DNA of 27,804 nucleotides from Verrucomicrobiota bacterium (GTDB lineage: Bacteria > Verrucomicrobiota > Verrucomicrobiia > Verrucomicrobiales > DEV007). The notes beneath the pieces are model-generated. The model worked only from the letters and a program-made list of their open reading frames with translations, ran no database searches and was not told the origin of the DNA. The stretch lies in assembly GCA_045046875.1 (NCBI GenBank), contig JASFYY010000145.1:1-27804 (forward strand). The letters are read 5' to 3'. Both the position numbers and the translations under genes were made by a program. Shown piece by piece: positions 1 through 27,407 of this stretch (the stretch's first letter is position 1; the number at the start of each line of letters is the position of its first letter).

Positions 1-3000
1 GAGATGCCTGCAAAAATTTCATCGATCAGAATGTCACCGGAGGTGTTGTGAATCACCACATCATTCGCATCATCATCAGTGAGACTACGCAGACTGCCAA
101 TCGTGATCTGCCCTCCCGCATCCACCGTGATCGAACCATCTGCGGTATCCACCAACTGCAGATCAATCGCATCAAACTCATTCAGATCGATCGCACCATT
201 ATTGTTCGAGTGCGCCTCCAGGCTGTTCAGTCGGATCTCAATCGGGCGAAGCCCTCCAATCGATCCAAAGGCATTGATAATAGCATGATCAGCCACCAAA
301 TCGATACCGCTGTTATCCGGAGCAACAAAACCATCCGGCGCATCCTGTGGATTCACCTCATTGATACTACCCAAATCGGCGGTGAGGGTCACATCATTAA
401 AATTACCACCAGCATCTATCCGGTCGATTAAAATATCACCGGCAGTCGCGCGAAGGTTGATATCGAAAGTATTCGTCTGATCAATATCGTTAATTGATTC
501 CACATAATCAGCGACGATCGTTCCTCCTGCCGTGAGATCAATTGATCCGGAAGTGGACACCAGGCGCTGCACATTCACCGCGTCATCTTCCACGATAGTC
601 ATGTTGCCGATAGTGAAATTTTCAGCAATGAGAGTCGCCACATTGGTGATCAAATCAAGCGCCCCGTAGGAAGTGGCTGTAAACAGCGCTCCATGAATCT
701 TACCTCCATTGACTGGCAAAAGAGTGGTAACCGGCTGTCCTGCAGTGCGTAGGGTGCCATAAGCGGTGAGTGTAACATCATCTGCACCGCCAGCACCTGC
801 TCTCACCAAATCCGCTTGAATACTTCCTCCTTTAGTGATCACTCCTGCGGCAAACTCCCCTGAGGTAATATCAATGTCCCCGACATTGGTTGTGATGCTC
901 CGTAACAAAACACTATCGCTTTCAGTAATCGTCAAATCGCCCGCCACTGTCGAGTCAGCGGTGATACCATCGACGGTTGTATCCATCACAATGTCCCCCG
1001 TCGCCAGAGCAGTCAGCTCCCGACCAAATATTTTCTGGAACGTATCGCCATTAATATCATTGCTGAGTATCGATCCTCCGGTGGAGGTAAGAAAAATGTC
1101 ACGGTTGGGTGCACGCACCGAGTCATGGGTGATGGTTCCTCCCGCGGTCACCGTGATATCACCAAGGAAAGTTTCCAGCTCAACCAGACCGATCGCGTCG
1201 GTTTCATCAATGCGAATACCTACCGCGGAATTCGCCTCGGCCGGATTACCTGCTGTGAAAGTTTTTGCGGAAACATTATTGACCGTCGTTCTCAGATCAA
1301 TCCCCAGATCGAAAGTATCAACAAACACCGGATAGCCCCGTGCATTCACAATAAGATTATTCGCCGTGATTCTCCCTGTCGTCGACGAATCGGAAAGCAC
1401 CGTGCCACCGGATGGCAACGAGCCCAAAGTAAAACCACCCGCATCAATCGTCACATCCCCCGTATTGCCGGCATCAATCACATCGAGTAAAATTGCTCCA
1501 CCAAATAGATCACGGGTACGCAGCACAATCGTATTGGCAGCGGCGTCAGTCTGAGAACGCACCAAACGTGCATTCATGCTGCCCTCGGTATCCACTTGAA
1601 TCGCCCCGTCATTGGTCAAAATTCGATTAATCAGCAAAGGGCTCGCCTGGCCGTTAACATTATTGATGGCCACATCCCCCTTGCCCACCGTGTTCAGCGC
1701 CCGGATGTCCAGAGAATTGACCGCTGTATCCAATGTCACACCACCCAAAGCCGTCACCACCAAAGCATCACCTACCACGTTGGCCTCTCCTGGATTTGGC
1801 ACCACACGAGTCAGGGCACCCCCTTGCGCATCAAGCGTCACATCAAACAGACTCGGCAGAGTCCCTCCGATCACCTTATCCACCACGATGGCTCCGCCAG
1901 CAGTCACATCAACCGTTCCTGCATCAGTCTCCAACAGGGTCAGCGTCAAGCCATCCAATTCATCAATCGTCAAATCAGCCGCTCCCCCCAAAGTTCCATT
2001 GATGATACGACCCGAAATGATATCATCCACCGCTGTCCTCAGAACACTCGACAAGGCCGCCTCAAAATTCAACTTGCTAGAACTCAACCGCGCCGGAGCA
2101 TTCACCGTGACGCCTCCGCCCAGCGCCTCGAGGGTAATACGATCGTCCGCGGTCACGTTACCGGAAATACTCATCGCGCCTCCGGCGGCCCCACTCTTCA
2201 AAATCACATTGGAATTCAAACCCGTCGCTTGCACCGAACCCACTGCACCCACATTGAGATCACCTGTATTGTCTGCAGCTCCCGTTGTCGAAGCCCCGCT
2301 TCCGGCAATCAGCCTGATCAATCCGTTATCAGGAGTAGAGCTTAACAGAGTGTTCACACTAATGTCCCGAAATGCGGTCGCAAAGATAGACGGCGCGACC
2401 ACCGAGCTGCTTCCATTGGCATTATTAAAATGAATCCCTCCGTCACCAGCTCCCTCGTAAGCATGAAGCTCGAAAAAGTTAGTCGAGGTGAGCGCACTTG
2501 TTCCTGGAACAGCATCCTGCCCCAGAATGTTAATCTGCGCCCCTTTCAATATTAATGATGTATCAAAATCATAGTTTAGAATCGATACTACTCCACTATT
2601 GAGCGTTTCAGCCTCATCACGACCAATGATAATCGCTTTAGCCTGATTAGTAATCGTATTCAACACGGACTGGGTCACATTCAAAGTATTCGCTTGGGGC
2701 ACCACATCAGCGACGCGAATATCATAATCATCCGTGACGTTGCGAATGTAAACATCGCCAGACGTATCGATGATCCCACCACCTGGTATTGGAGGAATGG
2801 TATAGGCGACCTGAACATCCCGATAAGCTGTAACGTAGTAGGTATAAGAAGAGTAAATCGTTATTTGCTCCCAGTAGTAATAAGTCCAAAACCAGACGGG
2901 AACCGTCCTCTGCTCCCATATCTGATAACTGTAATTGACCGTCACTGGCTGCAAATAGGATTCCACTTCCGGGCGCCATTCAGTGCGGCCCGCCACATCC

Positions 3001-6000
3001 AGAGTCACCTCGTCAGCTTCCAAAATAACATCGCGCCCGCCACCTGCCACTAACCGTCCCAGAACAATCTTCTGTCCAGGTGCCACCGCTAGGCGAATCG
3101 CGCCACTGATTGTGCTCAAACCATCAATATCCCGGATCTTGGTGATTTTGATATCGCGGTCGGAAATTATGTTTATCCCCTGCGCCAAAGTCGCCAGCGA
3201 GGTGGTGGTTTTTGCCGCCAACCAAGTGGCATTGATCTTAACCGGATCAGTGTCGAAGCCGATAGTATCACGAACAGCAATCGCAACTTCTCCGTTAGCT
3301 CCCAACGCTTCAATCACTCCGGTTGCAATGGATGAAACATTAAAAAGAGATCCGGTAGGCAAGTTGATATCGATATAACCACTTCCGTTACCATTCCATG
3401 AGCTTGGATCGTAGGAGCCGTCAAAAACAGCCGTATCTGAGCTGTAAATCCCTACGGTACCCTCCGGGCTTTGACTCAGAGGCGCTGGACCGATGAACAA
3501 ACTGGAATCACCGAGCGGATCAATGTTCTGAATGTTAAGCTGGAGATTGCTATTATTTCGCATCACCAAACGCTCCGTCACTGAAAAACTTCGTTTGAGA
3601 TTGAGAGTCAAACCTTCAGCTTCAACACTGCTGCGCATTTCAATCGTTCCAGCCGTAACGGTGGAGCCTATGCCGAGATCAAGCCACTCGGTCGCAAGGT
3701 CCCCCCACACCACGGTCGCATTTCCAGCATCGAGATCAACACGGTTGATTCCGCTCATCACCGCCTGCTCCCGACCATTATTAATACCGTTAACCGAATA
3801 GCTAATCCTTTCAGGAAAGGTTTGTTTGATTAATACCCACCCATCATTTGATAAATCATTAATGTTGATATGCCCAATGTTCCGCGGATCCATCTGGCCG
3901 AGCAAAGTTGATGCACCCGGATTGGTGTCGGCAAAATATCGTTTGGTCGGATTTCCCAGAGTCACCGCATAAAAATCAGCTCCAGCACCGCCTTCCAAAT
4001 TCAAGGTTTTGTCAGGTGCAAAAAAGAAAGTATTAAAACGATCATCACCTGATCCACCAATCCACGAATCTATACTGTTGCTACCAGAAGCATCCGGCGC
4101 AAAAAAGACCGTATTCAATCCAGTCTTGGCACTTTGCACCAAGCGCCCTAGATCAAAAGTCAGATCACTCGTAACTCCACTGAAATCCGCGGTATTTCCC
4201 AGACCTGTTACAATCAGTCGATCACGACCAAAACCATTCTCGAAATAATAAGTGTCTCCACCGCCGCCGCCATCCAACACATCCGAGCGTTGACCTGAAT
4301 AAATATCATCAGCCGCCGTGCCACCGATAATGGTCGTATTTGCCTGACCCGCTCTTAATATCGATGAACGATTCACCGACCCAAACAAAGTCGCGGTGCC
4401 CTCACCTCCGGTCAATCTGTTTTTTCCACCTCCGGAATTCCCCTTCCCTGCGTAAAGTGTAGAATTGCCGCTACCTCCATTCAGATCAACCAGCGCCCTG
4501 GTAAGTGCCGATGCGTCAATGATCGACTCACCCGAACCAAGCGAACCTCTGACCAAACTGATACCCGTAAAGCTCTGTGTGTAAGTTACGCCATTGAGAA
4601 TTGCGGTGACCGTGATGTTTTCCGTTGATCCGGAAACTCCGTCACTGGTCAAGGTATAAACTTCATTCACTGCCCGGGTATCATTAAAAATACGCAGAGC
4701 AGCTCTTGAACCTGTATTTAAATCAAGCGTACTACCCGAAACTGTAGCCAATTGAATGCCAGGCTTTTCCGCGAAGAAAGTCACCTGGAAAAGATCCATG
4801 GCAAAAGTCTTCTCCAAGATACGCTTGGTAATCGGACCTACAAATGGAACCGGAATCGTAAGGTCGACATAAAAAGTCAATCCAATCCGACCGGTCAAAG
4901 TGACATCGAACAGATTGCCCATTTTCAAATCCGCCCCCGGCAGATTTTTCAAATAATCAATCTGACTGTTACGCAACTTCCCATAACCCGGAGTTCCAGG
5001 ATCACCAAAGCTCGGAGGAAAGGGGTAGGCTTCCGTATCAACAGGCTGGAACGAAGAAACTGCATTCGCCTTGTTTTTATCGACCGTCACATCGTTCCAA
5101 TTAAAATCTACCTGCAGCTCGAAAAAGGCCTCGATGCCCGCCTCGATCAGACCAAGACTTAAAGCGACCCCCACGTTGAACCGGGCCAGTATGCCGAAAG
5201 CTGGCGAAGGCTGGCCATCTAGGTTAAGGGTGCTCCAATAAAAACCTTCGGTATCCCAGCCGAACTTCAGATTGATATTGACCGAAATCGAAAATCCAAC
5301 CGTGGCAATCAGGGGGGGGAATGCAGGTAGCGGAAAGCTTTTAGTAACAGCCACACCAACCTCAACCCGTGGCAGCTCGAGGAAAGTCAAATTAGCTTCC
5401 TGCCCCATTAAAATCTTAACGACATTCTCCTGCTTGGCAAAATCCAATCTGAATCCGCCGCCCGTGATGCCAAAAATAGGTGATTTTTTCGCTTTTGCTG
5501 AATCGTTATTCAGGGTCAGGGCCTCGTTCGACTTCTTTTTTACGTAAGCTTTGAGTTTTCCGTCATTTTCATTTTTTGCAAAACCGTCGTTCCTGAATTT
5601 CTCAAATCGCTTGCTAAATTTATTTGGAGTCGTTGCCTTTTCATTCAACGAATCTTTCATTCTCTTCAGTGCCGACCGGTCATCAGTCTCTCCATCAAGA
5701 ACAAACCTTATACCTCTGCCAACTTCGTCATCTTCTCGATTCTGGCGAGCTTTCTCTCGAGCGGTATCTCTCTCGTTCTTATATTTTTCAATATTATTTC
5801 GCTCCTTGGTCAAACGGCTATCCTTCCCAGCTGTCGTTTTGATTTTATTCCATATACTGCCACCAATACCCATGCGAACGCGGGGCTTCGCCCATGAGGG
5901 TTTGGGATCAGCACTGCTACCCACACCGATTCCCCGAACCATATCGTCCAGACGCACAATGGTAGAAGCAAAAGAAGTGAAGCCACTGCCAAGGAAGTCG

Positions 6001-9000
6001 CCTAACACAAAGGGGCTCGCCATCCACTCAGTGCCTGGCAAGGGCTCCAGCAGAAAATCGATAAGCGGGCGGATGGGTTTGATACCATCCGAAAATTTCA
6101 GCAAACTCTCAAAAATCGTGCCCTGCAAAAACCCTTCAACATCAACTTGAATGTTGTAAAAATCAAAGGCTGCACCGTCAATCAATTGACGATTGTAACG
6201 GAAAACCTGTGCTGAGAGTTCAAGTTGATCGTCTGTTGCATTACTAGTCCCATTACTCTGGTCGGCCAATACCACGTTGTAAGCAGCCATCGACGCCACC
6301 GCCAGACTTGTCACTCCGTCAGGTGCCAATACTCCCAAGTAATTCAACTGACTGGCACCAATTCCATAACGAATCTGCAAAGTAAACTCCGTCTGGATAT
6401 CAGGAATCCCTTGACCTCCTCCAAAAGAAGTCCCCGGTTTACCGCCCTCGATAAAAAGATGCAGATCCAGATCGCCATCTGTTTCAAAACTAAGCACCCC
6501 GAATTGGAAACTGCCAATCTGGCTTTGACCTGCCACCGGCAAAGCCGGATCAAGACCCAGAGTATTTCGACCCTGCATATCCTGAATCGTTGTGCGATTC
6601 AAATTAGTTCCGCCCGATCCCTGGTTAAGAAAAAAGTCAAAAGTCCCGTAAAAACCGGAAGCACTCAAAAAATCAGTCCCCAGCGAATACGGTCCCGGAG
6701 TGTCCCCCGCGTCCGCCACCTGTACCTGTAATTGATTCAAAGTGCTGCTTCGGGTGGACTGTTCGAATATCTGAACTCCAGCGGTATTGATATCTCCATC
6801 AAGCACCGCTTCGATATCAACTGACATCAGCGGGGTATCAACCCCATCCGTTGGATCATCCGCCGGATTGTAAAGATAAAACCCTTCCTGCAAGTCCACC
6901 CCGAAACCAAGATGCAAAGTAAAGGCCCGGCGCAAATTAATACCGCCTGTTGTCGGCGTATTAGTGACCGTCTGACCACTGATGGTTTGAGATACGGTAG
7001 CGGTATCAATGACCAACCCGGTTCCCGTCTGCGAGAGGTCAATGCGGTTAATATTGATTTCCGGCAAATCACTGAAGGTTTTAACCAGGTCCAGCGAAAA
7101 TTGCAAACTAACCGCGCTGCCAGGCACCACTTCAAATTCCTCATTCGCCGGGGTCAGGTCATAATTGCTCGCCGCATTGGGATCCCAAATCGTTGCCACT
7201 TCAGCTGCATCCAGCGTCTCGATTACGATTTCAGACTTAGTCGTCAAATATCCCTCACCGCCGGGCCCAAGGATCGCATACAAGGAATCAATAATCGCAT
7301 TGATCGGCTTGAGCTTGTTATTACGAAGCTCATCGCGAACCCGGTTGGTAAAATCACTGCGCCAGGTCTCAATGAAAACCGTTGAACTCGGCAAGTCGGT
7401 TCCCAACAGCGGAATATAGTTTCCCAGCGCCTGATCAATCGCAAACTGAAGATTAAACAATGCCAGGTCAAGAGCTTCTCCCATGATGAAGGGATCCCGG
7501 AGAATGTTCAACACGTCGACCGGTGGAATATTGCGACCCAGCGGCGGCAACTCGTCCCACGGCATGGTCGGATCGGTAAAGAAAACCGCGGGTGCCGGCA
7601 CCCCTGGTGTATTTGCCGGAACGGTCACATCAAAAAAGCGATCAAGTCCGGTACGAACACCTGTACCGTCATCGTAATTCAACACCCGAATATTGACCGG
7701 ATCAAAATCTGGCAGTGTCGCCACAAAAGCCGAATCCGCTTTTTGCGCGTCGGATAACTGGGAGGTATCCTTGGTGATCAAAATCTCATTGCCATTTTCA
7801 TCGGTAATGACAATAATCATCGGCAATAAGGCCTGCCCCTGACCATTGGGGTTCACGATGGCCCAGGAATTAAAACCTCCGGATCCATCTGCGTTCGAAT
7901 AAACCCGCTCCAAACTATTACTAAAATTAACGCTCACCCCGGCCGACAGCGCCGGCACGTTGTTATCCTGAATAAAACGAAATCCCCCATTGTCACGGCC
8001 TTCAGCTACCGCCACCCTCAGTTCGTCAAACTCAGCCCCGGTATCCGCAAACCCCACCCGAACCAGCTCCCACTTTTCGGAGGCATTGCCCACCGTTTTC
8101 ACCCGATAGATCCCATTCTGAAATTCAATGTTCGAGCTGCTATTCTGATCTTTCACCAGAATTAAATCATTCACCGCAATATCCGGCACGCCATCGATAC
8201 CCACCACTTGCCGTCCGTTCGCGAGGGTCGACAGAATCGAGTTCAGCGATTGGTTGGTTTTGGATTGCAAGCCCGGCTTACCATCAATGGTAGCAAAATC
8301 AGCAATCAATTCCCCCGTAGTAGCAACACGAACCAGATAAGGTAAAATCTGGTCGCCCTGTAAATTAATTTCAAAAGTTGCAGGATCAATAAAACGGGCA
8401 AAACGAACCGCATCCACTCCCAGATTCACAGGATCCTGCACCTGGATAAAATCCCTGCCAGCATAGGTACTGCCACCTGTCACCGATACAAATAGATCGT
8501 CCAGTTCTGCTGCAGTATTAGCAGCACTCACTCGCCTTAAGCGCCAGTTGGCATTGACGCCAGCACCACTGCCGTCACGTATAACAGAATAAACTCCATT
8601 GTAAGCGACATTGCCCTGATGGTTCACCAGTACGAGGTCGCCAATACTCACAGAAACTCCATCGATGACCAACTGCCCGCTTACATCTGCATCCAAACGA
8701 CCATTGGCAAGGGTCGGGTTGGTAAAAGTGCCTCCAAGATCCGCTGTCGTCGCCACGTCCACCGTCAAACCCGCAGGCTGCACATAACCTGCCTGCAGCA
8801 TTGCCTGATTATAAATCCCCGGAGTTCCATTGGCATCATCCACCGCCACTTCCCCATGTTTATTGACCGCCACCATGCCGTTCGACAAACGAAAACGTGC
8901 ATTTCCAACTGGCAGATCACCATTAAAATTTTCGCCAGCCAGGTTAACCAGAGTCGTGATCTGTGAAGTCTGGTAAAGCACCGCCCTCGGCTCCCTACTG

Positions 9001-12000
9001 ATTCCTCCGCGCACCACTTGAATCCCCAAATCAAGATCCAGATCCGCCAAAATACTCAGCTCCACCTCCATCGGGTTCGCCCCCGTGCTCGCTAGCGCGG
9101 AAAGTCCCGCCAGATAGTCATCCACAATCTCCGGATCACTAGAGCGATTGCGTAACTGGGCAAGGTCAACAAACAACGGCAAACTCGTCGCAAAGGCCTG
9201 CACAAAAGGCAGACTCAAATCAATGCTCGCTGACTCCAGAGCACCTGCATTATAAGTAGTGGAAAGTGATAAGCCGATATCAGCCAGATTCAGCTGAAAA
9301 ATCCCCGCCATCACATTTTTCAACTCCTGTAAGCTAGCGGGCTGAGCACTTTCAAGCCGCAGGATATACTGCTCTAACTCATATCCCAGATCAAACACAT
9401 CCACCAAACCGGACTTCACAAACAGCAACTTTGACTGAAAGGCATTCACCCCCGCCGCCGCCCCGTCTGGATCAATACGCATCTGATCCGAAATGTATTC
9501 CGCAGTTCGCAACAAGCCTTCAATGATATCCTCAAAACCCACCGTGTAGAGCATTTCCATGCCCAAGGTGTTATTATAAACCAAGTCAGGTGCTGGAAGG
9601 TTGGCAAAATCTGAAATCTTGCTGGCAGAAGGTCCCGCCATTCCAGTCAAGTCATGCTTCAATGTGATGGTAGCTCCTGGTCCGAAAGCCAGCCCGACAA
9701 AAGCTTCGCCCGTATCGGGATCCACAGGGAAACTCAGGTTACGTAACTCCAAGGTAGCGAAAGTCGTCGGATCCACCACCTGGGTGGATATCGAAGTCAG
9801 GTTGTTCGTGGCAGCGGCTGTATTCAGATCCACCAAGGTGAGGCGTCCGCCAAAACTGGTCGTCTCTTTGGCGACCAGATCCAAACGGCCGTCCCCTGCT
9901 TCGAAAGCGACAAAACCAAAGTGCCCTTTGGCACTCACCTGCTGATTCGTCACCGATGCAGTTCCCGTCAAAGCAATATTATTCAAGAAAACCTCACCAC
10001 CACGAGCCCCGATTCTTTGCTCTTCAGTTAGAAAGCCCAAAGTCGTGGTCGCGGTATTGGTCGGGATCGAATCGTCCGGCACAAATCGGAAAGTCCGCAC
10101 AATGGGATTACTATTCAGTGGATCCGAATTATCGAGTGAAAAAATTGCCACTCGCGAACCGCCTCCAAAGGTGCCCGCACGTAGAAAATCACTCAAATCA
10201 TAAGTCGCCCCGATGATAACCGGAGTCGCCGCCAATGCCGCATTGATATCACTGATCAAGTTCGCCATCGTCGGTGTTCCCACTCCCCCCGGTACCGTCA
10301 CTGTCACATAATCACTGCCATTGATCGAAATTTCGAACACCGCAGGGTTGCTCAACAAAAAGGGATTTGGTCCTTCAAGTGGTCGGGAAATGATCGACAA
10401 GCGAACATCCGTGATCGCCGAAGTTGCCGTTATTTCTTTAACGTAGAGTTCGGTGGAAACTGCATTCGGCTGTGGCTCGAAATAATTAGCCACTACCTCG
10501 AACGTCCAGGCTTCCGTAACATAAGATCCGTCATCCGGGAACACATTGGCATTCAGCCTGAATCCCACTTTCCCGCTATCATCGAAAGCTTCGATTTTGC
10601 CTTCGAACTCGGTGCTCAACTCCGCACTCTGCTGAATAGCAAAATTCAAGTCATCCAACAAATCCTGCATCGACGCATTACCCACCGTCTCACTGGCGTT
10701 GAGCACAAAGTCTCCGCTGTTACCATCAAAAAGATCAAAGTGAAAAAGCGCACGCGTCCCTGCATTCAAGCTAAATGACGGCAAATTGGTAGCCGTTACC
10801 GTATCAATCACTGTCGTTAGATTCGTCGAGCTGGCAACAAATCCCAAGTTGGTAATCGCTTCGTTAGGAGTCACAATTGAACTGGAGATCCTTTCCGGAA
10901 CCAGCACCTGGAACATTCTCGTATTCGTGATTGCCGGGTCTGCGGTGAACACCAATACCGAATAACGGCTGTCAGCACCAGCCTGAGCTGTCACACTGAC
11001 CTTGCCAATCAATCCCGCATCTGCATTGATCGCGGCCTGCACATCCGCGGCAAAATCAGAAGCGTCAGTATTGTCCGTCGTATCAATCGCATCGACTCGC
11101 AAATCGTGAATCACCCCGTCATCCAGAATCACCCGGATCAACCCGTCCGCTTGGATCTGCCCATCCCAGTCAGCAACCCCTACAGGAACCTCGAGCGTCA
11201 ACACTTCAGCCACAGAGGTATCAGGAACTAATCCCACTTCAAAACCAAAAGATGAATTGGTGGTGCGATCCACATCAACGCTGCTGTCGGTTGCCAGTTG
11301 GGAAATTTCCCCATATTTAGCCTCAAGCAACACATCCACCGCAGCCACCCCTGTCAGGCTGGTCGGGGTATAATCAAATTCGATCGGAAAAGTAATGCTC
11401 AAGCGAGAAGTATCAAAAACAGGCTGAGCAGCCCCTGCCAGTGGTCCCGCCGCTATGACCGCTGCAAACTCTTGCAAGCTGGTGAAGTCGGGCGAAATGA
11501 AACGCTTACTCAAAGCGAAAGAAGCTGATAGCCCATTGGTCGCCGGAGTGGTTCCAAAAGCCAAGTGCCCCAATCCTCCACTGATAGCCTGAATGGCAAT
11601 TTGGGAAATTTTTCCGGTAGCCTCACCAGGATTACGAGCGAAAAATTGCAAAGCCCCTGAATTGTCACCTCGCACATCAATCCCAGTGCCAGCAGCCTGA
11701 TCCAAGAGCGGGGTCAACACCCCAGCTGAAAATGTTGTATTTTTCAGACCATAACGAATATCATCAGCCAAATCCGACATCGCCACATTAGACGTGCCGG
11801 CAAGTCCAGTGGTGCGATTACCACTGAGGTAAGTTCGATAAGAGGTGGCCGTTCCATCAACAGTGATACTGAAGTCAATGTAATTGGAGGCCTGCAGGCT
11901 CGGTGTAAGTTTTAACTGGCTCAGACCCGTGCCAGCAATGCTCAGTCCGTAAATTTCTCCCGTCCCATAGACTCGAATTCCCTGCCCGCCACCGGCGAGA

Positions 12001-14201: not shown

Positions 14202-14226
14202 CTATGGTGGTAGAAAAATTAGAGTT

Positions 14227-14261
14227 ACAGACAAACAGACAAATCAGAAATCAGAAATCAG
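14227..14261. repeat. Short tandem repeats (ACAGACAA)x2 + (AAATCAG)x3 just upstream of the giant gene
   Basis: Read directly: acagacaa acagacaa, overlapping aaatcag aaatcag aaatcag at 14241-14261. Confidence 0.85.
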
Positions 14262-14420
14262 GGGAATGTACCATTAAACTGCACTAATGCATCCATTTTT
14301 TCCCAATTCACTACGGGAAGTCAAAGGAATTTCTAACTTTATTCGATAACGCCACGAAGCCCATTAGACAGAGCCTTTCATATACGCATTCAAGTAGTTG
14401 TATTAGAAAGGGTTACAAAC

Positions 14421-16415
14421 CTACATCCTTCTCGATTCTGGCACAAAACTGAGATGCTCATCGACCCAGGTATCCATCTTGAGCACCGATTTACGTTGAC
14501 TGGCCCCCAAGCGATCTGACGCCTTTTGAGCATGACGTATACAGGACAGGGCAAGTCTTTGATAACCAACAGATTGAGCCATGGAAGCCAACTTAAGACG
14601 TTTTTTCATAAATTTCGGCAAAAATCGCGCTATCAGCTCGTCATCCACACTGAGATATGCCCTTACACTGCCCGGATCTCCCTGACGTGCCGTCCGCCCC
14701 ATCAGTTGCCGATCAATACGCCCGGAGAAATTTGGATCGACCAGGATCACATGCATGCCCCCTATTTCCAGCTCCGGACCAGCTATCTTCACATCGGTTC
14801 CACGTCCCGCCATGTTCGTGGCAATGGTCACCGCCCCCTTTTTTCCAGCTCGCGCAACAACATCGGCTTCATCCTTGTGGCGAACGGCATTGAGCACATC
14901 ACAGACCACACCCCGGTCCTTCAACATCTCCGCCAGGATTTCACTTTCTTCCACGGTCCGAGTGCCTACCAGCACCGGCCGCCCCTGCGCGTGAAGCTCT
15001 TCGATGTCATGGATGATTGCTTCCCGCTTTGAGTCACTGCTACCAAATACCGCCATCGGTTCAACATGGCGCAAACAAGGTCGGTGCGTGGGAATTTTCA
15101 CCACCGCCAATCGATACAAAGTCCAAAGCTCGCCCGCAGCTTCCCAAGCTGTTCCTGACACCCCGGAGATATGCCGGAACATTCTAAAAAAACGCTGGAA
15201 ACTCATGCTTGCCAAAGTCTCCGTAGGATCTGTCGACGTGATTCCTTCTTTCGCTTCAATCGCCTGGTGCAGGCCCTGCTTCCAGGTTCGCCCCGGCATC
15301 AGACGACCGGTGAATTCATCAATGATCTCCACCTTTCCTTCTAAAATCGTGTAGTGGGAGTCCCTATCAAAAAACTCCTCCGCCACCAGCGCTTGTCGAA
15401 CCAACTCCTCACGCCTGTCGGGACTCCTCCAAATGGGAGACAACCGATGCCGCTGACGGTCAATCTGGTATTCTCCCGATGTTCGAAACACAATTTCATT
15501 ACGCGCATGATCAATGGAAAAATCACGCCCCGCCTTTAGGGACATGGCAATCTCCCGTGCGACACGACAACATTCAGCAAAATCATCCGCCTGGTGTTTT
15601 CTACTGATTATCAAAGGAGTTACCGCCTCGTCAATGAGCACACTGTCCGCTTCATCAACTATCACCGTATGAATCCCGCGCATCACCTGCTCACTGCCCC
15701 GCTCTCCCATCTGGCTACTGAACAAGTGTCTCACCAACTGCTGGGACGGAGCCTGGTCCTCACCGACCTTCAAGCGATCTCTCAAGTAGTCAGCCAATAG
15801 CTCCTGACTGGTGGTATAGACCACCCCGCATGCGTAAGCATCACGACGCCCATCAGGCTCCATCTTACCCGTTACAAACCCAACTTCCACGCCGGCAAAT
15901 CGATAAAAATCCCGCAAACTTTCCGCATCCCGTTCAGCCAGATAATCATTCACCGTGATGACATGCACGGGATAACCGGACCATGCGAGGATCAGGCTTC
16001 CCAGCGCAATCGTTAACGTCTTCCCCTCACCGGTTGCCATCTCAGCAAACAAACCTTGCTGAATAGCCAACGCTCCCATGACCTGCTCTTCATAGGGAGT
16101 CATGCCAAGCACTCGTTCGGAGATAACCACCAGACAAGCCATCGCCTCCCTGGCTCCCCCCACATCCAGGGATCCGCGTCTCGCGTCTCCATGAAGACGA
16201 ATCACCTCCTCTCTGAGCTCCTTTTCGTCGAGCCCCTTGAAACGTTGCGCGGAAATTTTGAGCACCTTGCGCGCTTCACGCCGCAGACGCCGCTTAACAC
16301 CTGCACGCCGTCTCCAGCGCCCAATGGTCGACAATACAAGCCTATCCATCCCCTCTGGAATGGATACCGTCTTGCGTGCCGCATTGCGATAGTAGCGCTG
16401 ACTAGGTGTGATCAT
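14421..16415 (-). CDS. SecA-like DEAD-motor ATPase, short accessory paralogue (664 aa) lacking most of the C-terminal scaffold/wing region
   Basis: SecA motifs present: MATGEGKT (Walker A), VHVITVNDYLAERD, IVDEADSVLIDEAVTPLIIS, GLHQAIEAKEG, GRPVLVGT, IATNMAGRGTD and RIDRQLMGRTARQGDPG. Only about 80 aa follow the last motif, and there is no C-terminal Cys/His zinc site. Confidence 0.93.
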   Translation of the reverse strand: MITPSQRYYRNAARKTVSIPEGMDRLVLSTIGRWRRRAGVKRRLRREARKVLKISAQRFKGLDEKELREEVIRLHGDARRGSLDVGGAREAMACLVVISERVLGMTPYEEQVMGALAIQQGLFAEMATGEGKTLTIALGSLILAWSGYPVHVITVNDYLAERDAESLRDFYRFAGVEVGFVTGKMEPDGRRDAYACGVVYTTSQELLADYLRDRLKVGEDQAPSQQLVRHLFSSQMGERGSEQVMRGIHTVIVDEADSVLIDEAVTPLIISRKHQADDFAECCRVAREIAMSLKAGRDFSIDHARNEIVFRTSGEYQIDRQRHRLSPIWRSPDRREELVRQALVAEEFFDRDSHYTILEGKVEIIDEFTGRLMPGRTWKQGLHQAIEAKEGITSTDPTETLASMSFQRFFRMFRHISGVSGTAWEAAGELWTLYRLAVVKIPTHRPCLRHVEPMAVFGSSDSKREAIIHDIEELHAQGRPVLVGTRTVEESEILAEMLKDRGVVCDVLNAVRHKDEADVVARAGKKGAVTIATNMAGRGTDVKIAGPELEIGGMHVILVDPNFSGRIDRQLMGRTARQGDPGSVRAYLSVDDELIARFLPKFMKKRLKLASMAQSVGYQRLALSCIRHAQKASDRLGASQRKSVLKMDTWVDEHLSFVPESRRM

Positions 16416-16416
16416 T

Positions 16417-18588
16417 TCAGGTTTGATTGAGATCCTTTTGAATCACTTGCCGGAACAAACGCCACCACTGGATGAAAAAGGGTTCTGGCTGAAGTTCAAA
16501 ACGGATTTGTCCGGAAGCATTTTCGTACAGGGTCATGTCGGCAATCTGGTCAGCATTCAATTCGGCCGTCACCTGGTAAAACCCTTCCTTAACCGCCGTT
16601 CCACTGTCATCCTTTTTATCCACTTCCAGCTCCCCCCCAGCACTCCACGCCAAAGCCGCCGTCGACAGTTTCTCCAAATCGGCTTGCAGAATATCCTGCG
16701 ATATCACCTCGATCTCCTGTCCCGCCTGGCCGCGTAATCGAACACTCGATCGCTGGATTTCCTTGGTGAACAGATCAGCTGCCCCGCGTTGATTCACCAC
16801 CGCAATAAATTGATAAGAGCCCGGGTCAATCACCTGACCTACCTCGGTGCCCCGGGGCACCCAGGTGCCCACCATTTCCCGACTGGAGGGAGCCACCCAG
16901 ATGCCTGCGTGCGGAGCCGATACCTTCAGCTCGGTGCGCTGACGTTCCAGTTCTTCGAGATAGGTCACTGCCGCCTTGAACTCACGCTGCAAGGGTCGCA
17001 GAATCGAAGTGTATTTCTGCTGCCTGGCCAGCTCAACCTGTTGCCGGAGTTGATCCAGACGTGATTTCATCGAATCAATTTCCATCGCAAGTTCCGGATT
17101 TTCCAATACCACCAGCAAGTCCCCCTTGGCGATCGTCTTTGTCGAATGTTGATGGACTTCTGCAATATAACCCGAGGTGTTGACAAAAACTCCCGTTCTC
17201 TCTTCAGCACTGATCACTCCAGAAGCCCGCAAGCTCCGGGGCGCAGGCAAATAACCTAACAGAGCAATGGCAATCAGAAGAAAAAATGCCACCACAACCA
17301 AAGCTCGCCTGCGCACCCGCAGCAAACGATCACTGGTGAATAAATAACGAACGAATTTCCCCGCCGGCAAAATGAAATACATGAACACACAAAAACCGGC
17401 GATCGCCAACCCGACTCCCAAAAAACTCTGCGCCACATAAAATGTGATCACCGCCAACAACACAATGCGATAACAAAAGGCCGCCACCCCATAAGTCGTC
17501 AGCCACCAGGCTTCTGAAGCACTGTCAGCCGGACTGAAAGCCGCACGCACTCCGAGTAGATATTTTTCCGCCAGAAAACGGATCTGGTTTTGTGCCCGTT
17601 GATACAGATTGGGTATTTCAAAATAATCACTAAACAAATAATAACCATCAAAACGCAGCAAGGGGTTGATGTTAAATATCAAAGTCGACACCGAGGCGAT
17701 GAACATGACATTGTAAGCCAACTTGTTCACAAAAGGATCCCCGGAATTCGCCCAGAGAAGAGCCGCCAAACTAGCAATAAAAAACTCTACCCCCATCCCT
17801 GCACCGTCCACCAACAGCCGTTGCCACTTTTTTCTAAAACTCCAGCTCCAGGTCGCATCGACAAACGGAAGCGGTGTAAAAATCATCAGCATCACTCCAA
17901 ATTTGTGAACCTCTCCGCCAAATTGTTTGCAAGCCACCGCATGCCCGGTCTCGTGAATCAACTTTAGGAAAACCATGCACAAGTACATGTAGATAAGATT
18001 GGACGGAGCCAACACACCCGCACTCTGGTCCACCAGGGCATCAAAATTGGAAATCGCCGTTTTGCCACCCCAGGCGACAACAAGCAGCCATAACAACACC
18101 CCCAGTGGCGTGAACAATAATCGTGTTACCGGTCGTATCGCATCCAGAAAACGATTCGGATCGAAGATCGGAATCTGCATGAAAAGAAAGTTCAAGGCCT
18201 GGCCGCGGAACTTTTTACGCCAGCCTTTACGGTATCTCTCAAACAATTGCTGACTGTCAGGAGCAAAAGAGGAACTCAGTAAATTGGCTTTATACAACTG
18301 GGACAAAACCTGGATCACCTCTTCTTGTCCCGGCGCATCTTCAGGATAAAGCGCCAGACACTCCCGCCAAACTTCTTCAAGGGTGCGGTCACCTCTCAGT
18401 CGTCCGATCAATGCGTAAGCAGCGGGTGATACCCGGTAAAATTCATTGTTTAATGGATCTCTCAACAAGAACCACCGCTGCCCGCGGAACACCTGGCGAG
18501 TCACCTCAACCGATGGGCTCAACCGGACTCGCTCCTGGGCAATCCGGTGCCACGAGTCGCTGAACATCTGTTGTTCTTGTTTAGCCAT
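16417..18588 (-). CDS. PqqD/RRE-like domain + M50 (site-2) zinc metallopeptidase + HlyD-type membrane fusion domain (723 aa)
   Basis: HETGH zinc motif at 17941-17955 and NINPLLRFDG at ~17644-17673 lie among multiple TM segments. The N-terminal ~100 aa has the 3-strand/3-helix PqqD-like pattern (WFLLRDPLNNEFYRVSPAAYALIGRLRGDRTLEEVW...VLSQLYKANLL). The C-terminal half has lipoyl half-motifs (VFVNTSGYIAEV..IAKGDLLVVLEN; VSAPHAGIW..VPRGTEVGQV) around a coiled coil. Its stop is 1 nt from the secA-like ATG. Confidence 0.9.
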   Translation of the reverse strand: MAKQEQQMFSDSWHRIAQERVRLSPSVEVTRQVFRGQRWFLLRDPLNNEFYRVSPAAYALIGRLRGDRTLEEVWRECLALYPEDAPGQEEVIQVLSQLYKANLLSSSFAPDSQQLFERYRKGWRKKFRGQALNFLFMQIPIFDPNRFLDAIRPVTRLLFTPLGVLLWLLVVAWGGKTAISNFDALVDQSAGVLAPSNLIYMYLCMVFLKLIHETGHAVACKQFGGEVHKFGVMLMIFTPLPFVDATWSWSFRKKWQRLLVDGAGMGVEFFIASLAALLWANSGDPFVNKLAYNVMFIASVSTLIFNINPLLRFDGYYLFSDYFEIPNLYQRAQNQIRFLAEKYLLGVRAAFSPADSASEAWWLTTYGVAAFCYRIVLLAVITFYVAQSFLGVGLAIAGFCVFMYFILPAGKFVRYLFTSDRLLRVRRRALVVVAFFLLIAIALLGYLPAPRSLRASGVISAEERTGVFVNTSGYIAEVHQHSTKTIAKGDLLVVLENPELAMEIDSMKSRLDQLRQQVELARQQKYTSILRPLQREFKAAVTYLEELERQRTELKVSAPHAGIWVAPSSREMVGTWVPRGTEVGQVIDPGSYQFIAVVNQRGAADLFTKEIQRSSVRLRGQAGQEIEVISQDILQADLEKLSTAALAWSAGGELEVDKKDDSGTAVKEGFYQVTAELNADQIADMTLYENASGQIRFELQPEPFFIQWWRLFRQVIQKDLNQT

Positions 18589-18629
18589 TCTGAATTCTAA
18601 CTTCTAACTCCTGACGCCTGACGCCTGAC
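18588..18629. repeat. Degenerate heptamer tandem array, 6 units
   Basis: TTCTGAA TTCTAAC TTCTAAC TCCTGAC GCCTGAC GCCTGAC fills most of the 49-bp gap between the two HlyD-type genes. Confidence 0.85.
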
Positions 18630-18637
18630 ATCTTCCC

Positions 18638-20539
18638 TCAAAGCCACAGTTTTAATCGCAAAAAGTCGATTGCCCTATGGGTGAATATCCACAAAGGACT
18701 GCGGATCCCTGCGTCAATTTTTGCCAAACCACTCATCCCTGGTCGCCACCAGCCCGACTCAGCGCCTTCCCGTGAAACCTCCACACGCATAATGAAACGG
18801 TTTCCCTCCTGATCAGGAATAGCAACCGGCTCGATCTCCTTGATCACAAACTTAAACCGGATTCCAGGTCGACTGGCAAACGACAGTTCCCCTGTTGCTC
18901 CTACATTCACATCGGCAATATTCCGCTCGTGCACCTTGAACTCGGCATACATGTCCTCAATTTTCCCCACCTTGAATAGAGCCTCTCCTTTCTCCACCGG
19001 ATAACCCAAACGCTCCTTCAAGTCACCCTCCACCACCACCCCTGCGATTGGTGAAAGCACTTCCGCCTTGCTCAGCGAGTACTGGACCTTCATCAATTGA
19101 GCGCGTGATTCCTCAACCTTGGCCAGGGCAATCTGCATCTCACCAATCCGTGAATCTGATTTTGCCAGCTTAGCCTCACTCAAATTACGCTCCACCGCAG
19201 CACTCAATTCCGCCACATGCAGCGTCAGCTCCGCATCATCCAACTTGGCTAGTTTCTGCCCCGCTTCAACCGCATCCCCAGGCTCAACTTCAACCGTATT
19301 CAAATAACCCACATAAGGCGCCGGCACATGATACATCTCTTCGACCCGCAGTTGAAACGGAGCCTCGATTTTATATTGCCAAGGATAATAAGACAAAAAA
19401 CCCAGTAAAGTCACCAGCAAGATCACTAAGAGTTTTGTCCAGGTGTGTTCAACTCCAAATACCCAGCTCAACGCTCGCCGCGCCCCTGAAACAATTTTTG
19501 CCCCAATCCACCGATCTCGCCTTTTGAGATCATCCAAACGGCGGATCACTAAATCCGAGATCAGTCGCAAACCATCCAAATCCTCCTCCACAAAATCCAC
19601 CGAACCTCTCTCCAAAGTGATCACCGCCACCGCCTCGTCATCCACCCGCAGAGGAATCGATGCCAGTCGCGACACCGCCTCTCGACGCGAATACGCCTCA
19701 TGATCCCGGTCGATCGATTGCAAGCCACCCGCAGGCGGCCAGACGATTTCATCATTCTGCTCCAGACATTCTTCCATAGCAGCGGACAAGTAACGACCCA
19801 ACTCCGACTTTCTGGAAACACGATCCACATGACTCGTCGCGATCAAACGAATCGTATCTCCCTGACGCCAGCCAATCGAAACCCGATCAGCATGGCATCC
19901 CGAAGCCAACTCATTACAAACCGTCATCGCTGCCGCTAAAAAGCGCTCTTCTTCATTTAGCCGTAAAGATAAATTGATCGCCAAAGCCGAAGCCTCGCGG
20001 TCGGAATGGTGCCCATCACCTTCACCATCAGCTCCCGCCACCAAGTTCACCAAAGGGTTTGCCCCCCATATCAATGGGGTGTCCCGCATCAACTGGGCAT
20101 TTCTAGTTGGAGGATGAAAAAAATCATCTTCTCCATAACGCAGAAAAACCGCCACACAAATCTCATCCGGACGCTCCAAACATAGTGAAAGCGCCGCCAT
20201 CCTAACCCCTTCTTCCTCTCCAAAAACCACCCCCCCTCTACTGCCCTGCTCTAAACTTTTTTCCCAACTCCTCTTCGCCAGGTCAAGCAATATCTCACGC
20301 TGACTGTAAAGGCGCTGACGAGTTTCCTCAGCCTCCGGCCAGTGAGCAATCGGCAACCATTCACCCTCACCCTCTCCATTATCCGCATCAGATCCTTGGG
20401 AAAAAAAAACTACCCCACTGGCAGCGTCGAGTTGACTAGCAAATATCCGCAAAAGCTCATTCCAGAAAACACCCTCTTCCCCGGAAAAACTCCACAACTC
20501 TTCCAGCGGCTCACGTTTTTTCGAATTCAACAACGACAT
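18638..20539 (-). CDS. GAF-domain-containing HlyD/efflux-RND periplasmic adaptor (membrane fusion protein, 633 aa)
   Basis: GAF-like region (ADRVSIGW..AAMEECLEQ..LASIPLRVDDEAVAVITLER) with a probable second degenerate GAF N-terminal to it. One TM (LLVILLVTLLGFLSYYPW). Lipoyl halves (VPAPYVGYLNTVEVEPGDAVEAGQKLAKL; VLSPIAGVV..VEKGEALFKV) flank a helical hairpin, followed by an RPGMSG motif. Confidence 0.9.
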   Translation of the reverse strand: MSLLNSKKREPLEELWSFSGEEGVFWNELLRIFASQLDAASGVVFFSQGSDADNGEGEGEWLPIAHWPEAEETRQRLYSQREILLDLAKRSWEKSLEQGSRGGVVFGEEEGVRMAALSLCLERPDEICVAVFLRYGEDDFFHPPTRNAQLMRDTPLIWGANPLVNLVAGADGEGDGHHSDREASALAINLSLRLNEEERFLAAAMTVCNELASGCHADRVSIGWRQGDTIRLIATSHVDRVSRKSELGRYLSAAMEECLEQNDEIVWPPAGGLQSIDRDHEAYSRREAVSRLASIPLRVDDEAVAVITLERGSVDFVEEDLDGLRLISDLVIRRLDDLKRRDRWIGAKIVSGARRALSWVFGVEHTWTKLLVILLVTLLGFLSYYPWQYKIEAPFQLRVEEMYHVPAPYVGYLNTVEVEPGDAVEAGQKLAKLDDAELTLHVAELSAAVERNLSEAKLAKSDSRIGEMQIALAKVEESRAQLMKVQYSLSKAEVLSPIAGVVVEGDLKERLGYPVEKGEALFKVGKIEDMYAEFKVHERNIADVNVGATGELSFASRPGIRFKFVIKEIEPVAIPDQEGNRFIMRVEVSREGAESGWWRPGMSGLAKIDAGIRSPLWIFTHRAIDFLRLKLWL

Positions 20540-20705
20540 TTGTTCAGATCAATAACAATAAGGGTAAATCCAGACAGTGAGTCCATTAAGCTATTCATTC
20601 AAGTCTATTCCATTTTCAATCTTCAATTCGTTTTCATCCATGTTTATGAATTTTATAAATATTTTATGAGATTTTGTAATCCACCCCGTGTTTATTGAAT
20701 CCATT
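20540..20705. promoter_or_regulatory. AT-rich divergent intergenic region, likely holding the promoters for the export operon and the hydrolase gene
   Basis: The flanking genes diverge and the region is visibly AT-rich. Imperfect palindrome TTTATGAA-T-TTTATAAA at 20643-20659; TTTATGA recurs at 20643 and 20663. Confidence 0.5.
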
Positions 20706-22172: not shown

Positions 22173-22194
22173 GGCAAAATTGCATCGTGGCATC

Positions 22195-22239
22195 GATTGC
22201 TTGGCGCGCCATAGCCCTTGGGGCGAAGGCGGGGCAATC
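22195..22239. repeat. Nested GC-rich hairpin between convergent genes (REP-like element and/or bidirectional terminator)
   Basis: GATTGC-ttggcg-CGCC-ata-GCCC-ttg-GGGC-gaa-GGCG-gg-GCAATC gives three nested complementary stems. No U-tract follows. Confidence 0.6.
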
Positions 22240-22260
22240 CGTGGATCCCCGCGAACCATC

Positions 22261-23229: not shown

Positions 23230-23258
23230 GGCAAAAAGATAAACTTCATTCCGGCCCG

Positions 23259-23738
23259 ATGGCAAACTTTAACTCAAACGTCAAATCTGCGATCATCGCC
23301 GCGATCCGCGCCGCCTTGAAAAAAGACTTCGAAAGCTTCCAACAAGCCTCTCAACAGACCCGTCAAAGCGGTAATGACGAACAAAGTCAACCGGACGGAA
23401 AATACGACACCCAATCCACCGAGGCCAACTACCTTGCCGACGGCCAAGCTCGACAAGCCGAAGAAATCGCCCAGGCTGCCGCCTGTTTCGAGACCATGGA
23501 AGCCCGTGATTTCAAAACCTATCACCCCATCGACCTCGGTGCCCTGGTCGAAATGGAAATCAATCAACAATCCCAATGGTTTTTCCTCGCCCCCGCATCC
23601 GGAGGTCTGGAGATCCAAGTAAAAGATCAAGAGATCACCCTCATCACCCCCGATTCCCCACTCGGCAAACAAATCATCGGCCAATACCAAGGCGAGCAGA
23701 TTTCCTCCCCCGTCGCAAAAATCCTCTCCATCCTATAA
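23259..23738 (+). CDS. GreA/GreB-family transcription elongation factor-like protein
   Basis: N-terminal helical hairpin containing GKYDTQSTEANYLA, and a Gre C-terminal domain pattern (IDLGALV..ITLITPDSPLGKQIIG). Confidence 0.8.
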   Translation: MANFNSNVKSAIIAAIRAALKKDFESFQQASQQTRQSGNDEQSQPDGKYDTQSTEANYLADGQARQAEEIAQAAACFETMEARDFKTYHPIDLGALVEMEINQQSQWFFLAPASGGLEIQVKDQEITLITPDSPLGKQIIGQYQGEQISSPVAKILSIL

Positions 23739-23910
23739 AAATCCCCCTATCCCAATTCCAATTCTTATTCGTGTCTCTTCGTGTGCATCTTGACTCCCCT
23801 TAGCTGTAGCGGCGGCGGTTCGTGGTTCCAGCTATCCCAATTTAGTCCCCCCCTCCTCTCAATTCCATCTCACCACTTGCATTCTTTCCCCTTCAACCGC
23901 ATCTATCCAC

Positions 23911-24522: not shown

Positions 24523-24534
24523 ACTTCTCATCTT

Positions 24535-25308: not shown

Positions 25309-25322
25309 ATCCCAGCTCCCCT

Positions 25323-27202: not shown

Positions 27203-27241
27203 AATACAGGGAAAAAACATCATTATTTCAATAGAAGCAAC

Positions 27242-27277
27242 CACAATCACCGCCACCGCCACCGCCACCGCCATCGA
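27242..27277. repeat. Hexamer microsatellite (CACCGC)x4 with degenerate flanking units
   Basis: CACAAT, then CACCGC x4 (27248-27271), then CATCGA. Confidence 0.85.
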
Positions 27278-27399: not shown

Positions 27400-27407
27400 T
27401 TTGCCAT

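Follow-up and report, generated by a model that had tools for sequence, protein, structure and literature searches.

We have analysed a 27,804-bp stretch of DNA (the window) from a Verrucomicrobiota bacterium. It is the whole of contig C145 (JASFYY010000145.1) of a 5.59-Mb draft genome (163 contigs, 94.7% complete). Four co-directional genes lie in it. They encode a GAF domain fused to a HlyD-type adaptor (GAF-HlyD), a fusion of a predicted recognition element for peptides that are made on ribosomes and modified after translation (RiPP recognition element, RRE) with an M50 protease and a second adaptor (RRE-M50-HlyD, or M50-HlyD), a short SecA, and the N-terminal part of a giant protein with a LEPR-XLL leader motif. 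A preliminary description of the same DNA took these genes for a candidate dedicated export system of the giant protein, in which a SecA-like motor and the M50 membrane domain replace the ATP-binding cassette (ABC) transporter of type I secretion. The gene order, the gaps of 49, 1 and 219 bp and the divergent upstream gene that it listed are exact on the open reading frame (ORF) listing, as follows.

Positions 18638-20539, minus strand: GAF-HlyD ORF, 633 amino acids (aa).
Positions 16417-18588, minus strand: RRE-M50-HlyD ORF, 723 aa.
Positions 14421-16415, minus strand: short SecA ORF, 664 aa.
Positions 14202-14420, minus strand: spacer between the SecA-like and giant genes, 219 bp, with one promoter-like site at 14295-14324.
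Positions 3-14201, minus strand: 5´ part of the giant ORF (the putative cargo), 4733 codons, running off the contig end.
Positions 14031-14087, minus strand: LEPR-XLL leader motif, a match to NF012209, with LEPRLLL at residues 44-50 (bases 14052-14072).
Positions 20688-22172, plus strand: divergent ORF bounding the cluster, 494 aa.

Because the window is an entire contig, the giant gene is truncated by the assembly and not by the choice of window. A promoter and terminator scan of positions 13800-20900 returned 7 promoter and 6 terminator sites, compared with 5.5 and 7.7 in shuffled sequence. These counts speak neither for nor against an operon and, since taken together they do not exceed those of shuffled sequence, the site in the spacer is at most a possible internal promoter.

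The RRE-M50-HlyD protein combines three modules. Residues 452-723 form a HlyD-type adaptor, predicted to be periplasmic, with an RND_mfp match at 452-524, and a Foldseek search with the full-length AlphaFold2 model (pLDDT 83.9) found MacA, AcrA and MexA at about E 1e-12. As this model returned adaptor proteins only, residues 1-450 were folded separately (pLDDT 82.3) and compared with approximately 48,000 solved chains using VIA-align. The first module, at about residues 14-109, is modelled as a three-stranded sheet (28-34, 37-44 and 49-53) followed by a winged helix of three helices (55-62, 70-80 and 88-100). Its best match is the lasso peptide protein B1 in complex with a leader (6jx3_B, Z 8.7, 83 of 85 residues, root-mean-square deviation 2.9), with TbiB1 (5v1u, Z 8.5) and PqqD (5sxy, Z 7.7) next and weaker matches at Z 5.2-7.6 to TigE, ThcOx, PbtF, MibB, MccB and NisB. 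The model thus points to an RRE fold, which is predicted to be cytoplasmic. At the sequence level PqqD matches this domain at E<=0.01 in 12 of 31 orthologues and no other family matches it; a profile of the domain run against PDB sequences found nothing meaningful (best E 1.7, a pectinesterase).

The second module is a site-2-protease-type membrane domain spanning about residues 145-447. The corresponding part of the 1-450 model (about 136-390) is closest to SpoIVFB in complex with pro-sigma-K (8vjl, Z 9.9), RseP (Z 9.8 and 8.7) and the site-2 protease of M. jannaschii (Z 8.4). Foldseek gave the same families with weak E-values (0.01-0.4) at probabilities of 0.99-1.00, the best being 3b4r (E 0.01, probability 1.00). 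Two zinc-site motifs are found in membrane helices, HETGH at 212-216 and NINPLLRFDG at 306-315, and in an alignment of 31 M50-HlyD orthologues H212, E213, H216, N306, N308, P309 and D314 are invariant (31/31). The modelled site-2-protease fold thus has intact catalytic motifs. The protease model for daptides (daptide_HExxH, NF041824) aligns with residues 22-410 at E 1.3e-49 (169.4 bits, under its equivalog cut-off of 300), and that for the epipeptide M50 maturation protease matches at E 5e-9, also under the NCBIfam cut-off. The M50-HlyD family is large, with 4187 clusters at 50% identity and E<=1e-30.

The GAF-HlyD protein has a GAF domain at about residues 203-331 (28.2 bits, cut-off 22.4) and an adaptor recognized by HlyD_D23 (62.7 bits, E 4e-17) and HlyD_3 (E 4e-13). 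A single hydrophobic helix at 366-384, preceded by a basic stretch, separates the N-terminal part (1-365) from the adaptor, and the GAF part is accordingly predicted to be cytoplasmic and the adaptor (about 400-614) periplasmic.

The short SecA is matched by SecA_DEAD (E 7.7e-86), SecA_PP_bind (E 7.4e-24) and P-loop_SecA (E 2.4e-49). It contains nucleotide-binding domain 1, with the Walker A motif GEGKT (K132) and a DEAD motif at 254, the preprotein cross-linking domain, nucleotide-binding domain 2 and the start of the scaffold helix. Residues 41-651 align to residues 13-603 of Bacillus subtilis SecA (chain of 778-841 aa), and the C-terminal third is absent. In B. subtilis SecA the corresponding region comprises the wing domain, two-helix finger and C-terminal tail. 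Orthologous ORFs are mostly 655-690 aa long. The protein falls under every equivalog cut-off for SecA and SecA2 (e.g. 539.7 bits against 814), including those of the SecA2 models TIGR03714 (457 bits, cut-off 930), TIGR04221 (407, cut-off 725), NF012136 (355, cut-off 1100) and TIGR04397 (482, cut-off 1085). The preliminary description asked for confirmation of a separate full-length secA, and the genome has one. The canonical gene is on contig C66 (open frame of 1076 aa, 380 bits in the genome search, compared with 290 bits for the short SecA on C145).

The 4733 residues of the giant protein encoded in the window match no Pfam family, RTX included, and a self-BLAST found no internal repeats at E<=1e-5. 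The protein is devoid of cysteine (0/4733), compared with about 0.94% cysteine in the long open frames of the genome; the three other proteins of the cluster have 17 cysteines in 2020 residues. It is acidic (572 D+E, 285 K+R), and no hydrophobic signal is found at its N-terminus. These traits fit transport as an unfolded chain. The N-terminus consists of a 40-residue Arg/Gly-rich stretch followed by FTVEPLEPRLLLNAAL. NF012209 (LEPR-8K, LEPR-XLL) scores 19.1 bits at residues 39-54 and 26.1 bits in the genome search, with a cut-off of 17. This is the single match in the 5.6-Mb genome, and none of 14 control genomes has a match over the cut-off. By this control, the motif is not a chance match.

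An alignment of 44 leaders (that of the window, those of adjoining giants and those of unlinked LEPR proteins in two phyla) defines the pattern as a short basic N-terminus followed by the core F-x-(L/I/V)-E-x-L-E-x-R-(I/L/V)-(L/M)-(L/M)-S-A and then an acidic low-complexity stretch. Two positions, E45 and R47, do not vary at all, and another two, E42 and L44, are kept in at least 90% of the leaders. A Sec signal peptide would need a longer hydrophobic run than the one present. About 45-60 residues past the core, many but not all leaders have a loose second motif, (D/G/S)-L-F-(D/E/A), which could mark a second recognition or cleavage site.

The core of the locus is already known from comparative genomics. 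Kamneva, Poudel and Ward (PLoS One 2015; PMC4452313) described a locus combining a secondary SecA_DEAD protein with Peptidase_M50, HlyD and GAF-HlyD proteins, with or without an OEP gene. They proposed that SecA serves as the ATPase and the M50 protein as a membrane pore that replaces the ABC transporter. In the portions of the article available here, the role of the locus is left open, and a patchy spread across phyla with inferred lateral transfer is reported. Among the carriers that they name is Methylobacterium extorquens AM1 (genes META1p2399-2402), which can be cultivated. This is the report on secondary SecA_DEAD proteins to which the preliminary description had alluded. The window is a member of this type of locus as there outlined, with the same gene set and a second SecA_DEAD protein beside the canonical SecA. 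The terms giant, cargo, large protein and PqqD are all absent from the text of PMC4452313 as searched by term, which names no substrate.

The nearest public relatives of the window are metagenome-assembled Verrucomicrobia records with an identical four-gene order and M50-HlyD identities of 96% and 87%. A related-locus search with the M50-HlyD protein alone gave 4 loci, two of them from Fibrobacter. In both Fibrobacter records the M50-HlyD gene (37% identity) is followed by a short SecA gene (42-43%) and preceded by a giant ORF with RTX repeats, and the LEPR match is found at the start of the giant ORF, 22.8 kb upstream.

For a wider comparison, the flanks of the 27 strong loci found outside the window were retrieved (roughly 9 kb either way), and 184 flanking ORFs, 178 from these loci and 6 from a Fibrobacter locus (L006), were scanned with Pfam. 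The order GAF-HlyD, M50-HlyD and short SecA on one strand recurs in 23/27 loci, and a GAF-HlyD orthologue is directly upstream of M50-HlyD in 25. A LEPR giant abuts the cluster or lies within 9 kb in 13 loci, directly after the SecA gene in seven, after one intervening gene in two and divergently upstream in one; in the remaining three a giant with a LEPR start located by its coordinates ends beside the cluster. Two further partners emerge. Within 8 kb, 20/27 loci have a gene for a TolC-type OEP, and 13/27 encode a short HlyD adaptor (244-310 aa). The expected association with TolC is thus borne out, and the cluster as first drawn holds its four genes but is without two of the usual parts, the TolC-type gene and a third, short HlyD. 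No ABC transporter appears as a constant partner, as a type I ABC exporter (ABC_membrane plus ABC_tran) is found neither in the window nor within 8 kb of any of the 27 loci. Genes for modifying enzymes or small precursors are likewise not regular neighbours in the window or the 27 loci.

Other ABC parts occur sporadically around the 27 loci. At two loci from related genomes, and only there (L048 and L049; genomes G060 and G099), a divergent operon joins the gene for a small ABC ATPase of 209-212 aa to unassigned membrane-size ORFs and to a gene of the TolC type; an ABC-F protein is found at L058 and an FtsX/MacB permease at L053. A gene for an FGE-sulfatase (sulfatase-modifying-factor-like) lies near the gene cluster or its TolC gene in four genomes (L037, L040, L055 and the genome analysed here, G000, at C54:5715-6602). 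The rest of the window (20688-27804) encodes a weak ceramidase-like ORF, a xylose-isomerase-like TIM barrel, a HAD hydrolase, a ThuA-like protein, a pyridoxamine-phosphate oxidase and a PQQ_2 beta-propeller protein, all of them ordinary genes. DUF3467 was not found in the genome, which is 94.7% complete.

The TolC-type gene missing from the window is probably on another contig. The only clear orthologue of the cluster-linked OEPs in this genome is at C54:2527-4785 (752 aa, sharing 40% identity with the nearest outside relative's OEP). Contig C54 (locus L109) starts with an ORF of 824 aa that is cut at its 5´ end and stops 52 bp before the OEP gene. This ORF is free of cysteine and acidic (128 D+E, 38 K+R), and matches neither RTX nor any other Pfam family. 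Its first 122 aa are 64% identical to residues 4612-4733 of the giant, with a second, offset match of the kind typical of tandem repeats. The likely layout is therefore GAF-HlyD, M50-HlyD, short SecA, a giant of at least approximately 5,550 aa, and TolC, with the assembly broken in a repeat; the join is made by similarity and not by overlap. C54 would then probably hold the 3´ end of the giant gene and the outer-membrane channel of the system. Downstream of the OEP gene are a 266-aa ORF with no Pfam match, the FGE-sulfatase gene and a PQQ_2 gene. The best match to the short HlyD in this genome is on C37; it is an uncertain orthologue (31% identity) and is linked to nothing relevant.

The distribution of the components was followed with three queries in 301 genomes, evenly sampled from the phylum of the window and including the window's own genome. 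Genomes with a strong full-length M50-HlyD orthologue (E<1e-100) are here called cassette genomes, after the gene cluster; there are 25. Another 43 of the remaining 276 carry only weaker M50-HlyD paralogues (E 1e-13 to 1e-72, 24-31% identity). The short SecA (E<=1e-125) is present in 24/25 cassette genomes and in none of the 276 others, and in the 25th (G004) a contig end truncates the gene. At E<=0.01, NF012209 has matches in 23/25 cassette genomes, as against 5/276 others, where the matches are weak (18.7-22.2 bits) and in open frames of 38-636 aa. By contrast, 40 of the 44 LEPR places in cassette genomes are in open frames of at least 1000 aa, the longest of 20,466 aa. The patchy spread is concordant, with all three features in the same 3 of 21 genomes of family f6, in the same 8 of 26 of family f7 and in one of three genomes of genus g26, the other two having a paralogue only. 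Copy numbers match as well, since M50-HlyD and short SecA are both present twice in three genomes (G180, G062 and G289). The short SecA is present even where it is unlinked from the other cassette genes (G289 and G169).

A second sample comprised 151 genomes of Fibrobacterota, 21 of them with the cassette. NF012209 matches at E<=0.01 in 16 of these 21, and frames of at least 1000 aa with a match are found in 14/21 cassette genomes and 0/130 others. By coordinate arithmetic the giant gene ends directly at M50-HlyD in 10 genomes (11 loci), giving an order of giant, M50-HlyD and SecA that differs from that in the window. The linkage of short SecA, M50-HlyD, GAF-HlyD and LEPR-XLL giants that the preliminary description anticipated is thus seen across genomes, and the three-way co-occurrence of M50-HlyD, short SecA and LEPR giants in two phyla.

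These distributions bear on the possibility that the locus encodes an ordinary tripartite efflux or envelope-maintenance pump with an odd inner-membrane partner, and that the giant is linked to it through co-transfer on a mobile island. The adaptors do resemble MacA, AcrA and MexA, and lateral transfer of the locus between phyla was inferred by Kamneva et al. (the portions of PMC4452313 referred to above). Yet the association with LEPR giants holds in two phyla, with differing gene orders and even where the genes are unlinked, and an RND, MFS or ABC pump is never a constant partner. A leader-recognition fold and a preprotein clamp, moreover, indicate a polypeptide substrate. We regard a pump of this kind as very improbable, and as the least favoured of the explanations considered here.

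The reading that we prefer is that the three genes upstream of the giant encode the inner-membrane core of a dedicated, ABC-less and TolC-linked machine that recognizes, processes and exports the adjacent giant protein by means of its N-terminal LEPR-XLL leader. We put its probability at roughly 0.6. The arrangement of the genes first reported is confirmed; its interpretation is partly supported, by comparative evidence, and is mechanistically unproven.

Several observations weigh against this reading. First, the family assignments within the M50-HlyD protein are below threshold in the window. Peptidase_M50 scores 24.8 bits with a cut-off of 27.2, and PqqD scores 20.1 bits with the whole protein and 23.1 with the isolated domain, with a cut-off of 23.4; in paralogues of M50-HlyD the Peptidase_M50 scores reach 45 bits. 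Second, 14 of the 27 loci have no LEPR giant within 9 kb, the giant being elsewhere or on another contig, and two cassette genomes (G281 and G169, in 270 and 370 contigs) have LEPR matches only below the threshold, at E<=1. Third, the counts overstate the independence of the observations because the sampled genomes are related, and the filter of at least 1000 aa used for Fibrobacterota was chosen after the data had been seen. Fourth, at E<=0.01 NF012209 also matches in 14 of the 130 Fibrobacterota genomes that have no cassette. The leader can thus persist without the machine, which is the main observation against a strict dependence of one on the other.

The LEPR matches in these 14 genomes are on frames of 27-572 aa. 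Five short-frame regions (L098-L102; genomes G366, G396, G435, G319 and G324), four from cassette-free genomes and one from a cassette genome (G396), have frames of 36-164 aa with a Lys-rich start followed by ..nykieaLEPRLMMDA.., and three such frames are clustered within 8 kb in G366. Because the sequence has no continuation in another frame in any of the five regions, simple frameshifts in giant genes do not account for the short frames, which may be what is left of lost giant genes or may encode small tagged proteins. In another reading, the true substrate of the cassette could be a small leader-bearing peptide that is matured and exported in the manner of a RiPP, the giant being merely a frequent neighbour. 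The RRE fold of the N-terminal domain and the resemblance of the first 410 residues of M50-HlyD to daptide (E 1.3e-49) and epipeptide (5e-9) M50 proteases are in line with this, as are the genuine-looking leaders of the short ORFs. We nevertheless find it improbable. Neither a modifying enzyme nor a small precursor gene recurs beside the cassette, and the motif in cassette genomes is overwhelmingly on long frames (the 40 of 44 places mentioned above). The short frames are mostly in genomes that have no cassette and look like remnants, and both NCBIfam scores are under the cut-off.

A further group of observations concerns the motor. Six loci with weaker M50-HlyD paralogues (L103-L108; genomes G139, G189, G005, G006, G274 and G226), chosen by score and completeness and not randomly, represent a sister clade. 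HlyD-type genes, one or two in number, adjoin M50-HlyD in all six and three have an OEP gene in view, but a SecA-like ORF is found near M50-HlyD in none of the six. The five genomes tested have a single SecA_DEAD match each, the canonical one, and no short SecA. Four of the six loci adjoin proteins with the N-termini MYQLEDRILFDGAA (three of them with DUF4347), LEALEQRQLLAGG or IEALETRTLLAGA. These motifs are of an LExR type that includes LEALEQRQLL and IEALETRTLL. Since a paralogous clade also adjoins LExR-type N-termini, the pairing of leader and M50-HlyD is older than the clade of the window. Since this clade has no short SecA, feeding by a SecA-like ATPase is not needed by the wider family, and the short SecA is a clade-specific part and not a general replacement of an ABC transporter. 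It is therefore an addition specific to the clade with NF012209-type giants. Accordingly, the first proposal that a SecA motor and an M50 domain together replace the ABC transporter holds in that no ABC partner is seen, and fails as a general statement about the motor. The idea of a hybrid pathway gains comparative support, but both the core locus and the proposal of a SecA ATPase with an M50 pore have been in print since 2015.

The genome also has a classical type I locus at C73:24000-42000 (L110), where an RTX protein of 694 aa, an OEP of 624 aa, a C39-ABC exporter of 729 aa and a HlyD of 409 aa are encoded next to a MacB-type ABC/FtsX pair. Owing to this locus, export of the giant by a C-terminal signal through an ABC system has to be counted among the points that tell against a dedicated machine. 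The cassette could then be a device for retention and release or for maturation, which cuts or holds the N-terminal tag under control of the GAF domain while the giant leaves by another route.

A precedent for control at this end of a giant protein is the adhesin LapA, on the N-terminus of which LapD and LapG act. The cassette does combine an N-terminal motif with a protease and a cytoplasmic sensor domain, the LEPR giant of Fibrobacter has RTX repeats, and the paralogous clade does without a SecA-like ATPase. The LEPR-XLL giant of a Vibrio that is described in the available part of PMC10868602 has an RTX region at its C-terminus, which points the same way. Such a device would leave unexplained, however, why three TolC-docking adaptors and a dedicated TolC (20/27 loci) are maintained without a pump, and why a SecA motor that has kept its clamp co-occurs so strictly and in matching copy number. 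The C73 locus has its own adjacent RTX protein, the giant in the window and its probable C54 piece have no RTX match, and the RRE is predicted to be cytoplasmic, so that it would meet the leader before export. We consider retention and release, or maturation, unlikely, though less so than a peptide substrate.

Returning to a dedicated export machine, the domain composition suggests how it could work. The cytoplasmic RRE of M50-HlyD would bind the leader core as an added strand, as RREs do with leader peptides. The site-2-protease domain (HExxH...NxxPxxxxDG) may then cut the leader at the cytoplasmic face, much as SpoIVFB acts on pro-sigma-K, and together with the membrane helices of the adaptors it could form the inner-membrane passage. 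The short SecA, having kept the motor and the preprotein clamp without the parts for the use of SecYEG, would hold the unfolded, cysteine-free chain and feed it in. The M50-fused and GAF-fused adaptors and, in most genomes, the third short HlyD would build a periplasmic duct to a TolC-type channel, in this genome probably the one encoded on C54 after the stop codon of the giant gene. The cytoplasmic GAF domain may gate the machine on ligand binding. Because a sister clade exists without short SecA, the inner-membrane core may work with another energy source, and the short SecA may be a holdase or unfoldase for very long chains rather than the translocation motor itself.

One extension is that these systems constitute a distinct pathway of broad occurrence among Gram-negative phyla for some of the largest bacterial proteins known. 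The RRE and the M50 protease would read and remove a LEPR leader, three HlyD proteins and TolC would form the duct, a truncated SecA in place of an ABC transporter would drive the feeding of the chain with ATP in the clade with giants, and the proteins would emerge with the N-terminus ahead, the reverse of classical type I secretion. The clade without SecA, with its LEDRILFD/DUF4347 cargo, would be ancestral. We hold this fuller scheme tentatively, and think it somewhat more likely to fail than to stand as a whole.

If the dedicated machine is real, it addresses the question of how proteins of 5,000-20,000 residues that have neither a Sec signal nor a nearby ABC exporter are exported. The analysis names a concrete machine, a tag and individual residues that can be put to the test, namely K132 of the Walker A motif, E213 of the protease and, in the leader, E45 and R47. 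It would represent a secretion route of its own with an unusual motor, one that joins RiPP leader recognition and protein secretion, and would offer a portable tag with which very large proteins free of cysteine could be exported. Giant proteins in symbiosis and adhesion may be concerned as well. Green sulfur bacterial consortia, for example, have an acquired secA and giant proteins 'lacking known signals', according to the portion of the preprint available (bioRxiv 10.64898/2026.03.19.712371).

Relative to the published locus, the cargo tag, the RRE and site-2-protease anatomy, the truncation of SecA, the three-way co-occurrence and the SecA-less sister clade are new. LEPR-XLL is used solely as an annotation name in the papers returned by full-text literature searches and, judged by titles and the beginnings of abstracts, none of these links the LEPR tag to a machine of SecA, M50 and HlyD proteins.

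Among known systems, we place the system with tripartite, TolC-linked, type-I-like export. It shares HlyD-type adaptors and, probably, a TolC-type channel with the type I systems HlyB-HlyD-TolC and LapB-LapC-LapE, and like these it has a giant, acidic and cysteine-poor cargo encoded beside the machine. A one-step, envelope-spanning design is likely in both. Unlike type I systems, it is without an ABC transporter at any of the 27 loci and has adaptors of three kinds, of which two carry a fused cytoplasmic module. Furthermore, its conserved signal is N-terminal and not C-terminal, and the cargo in the window has no RTX match.

An RRE fold in front of a protease and a short N-terminal leader are also found in the leader peptidases of RiPP systems (lasso B1/B2, NF041824, EpeP/YydH and peptidase-containing ABC exporters). 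One of these M50 proteases, EpeP, is considered both to cleave and to export a peptide (PMC10885120, in the part available). The cassette differs in having a putative substrate of more than 5000 residues and no modifying enzymes, and it is new here that the protease is fused to a periplasmic adaptor and paired with TolC and a SecA-like ATPase. SpoIVFB and RseP are the best structural matches of the membrane domain and have the same two zinc-site motifs. The protein on which SpoIVFB acts does not span the membrane and loses a short pro-sequence at its N-terminus. In contrast to both proteases, the M50 domain of the cassette has no PDZ or CBS domain, is fused to an RRE and a HlyD adaptor, and lies outside a signalling cascade.

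Finally, a second SecA-type motor for special and often very large cargo is reminiscent of SecA2 and of the Omnitrophota. West-Roberts et al. describe SecA motor and clamp domains without scaffold and wing within Omnitrophota giants and suggest self-export (bioRxiv 10.1101/2023.11.21.568195, in the portion available). On that partial account, scaffold and wing parts are absent there as they are from the short SecA. The short SecA differs from SecA2 in falling under all SecA2 cut-offs, and SecY2/Asp partners are not seen in the window. It differs from the Omnitrophota motors in being the product of a free-standing gene, coupled to adaptors and TolC, and not a domain of the cargo itself.

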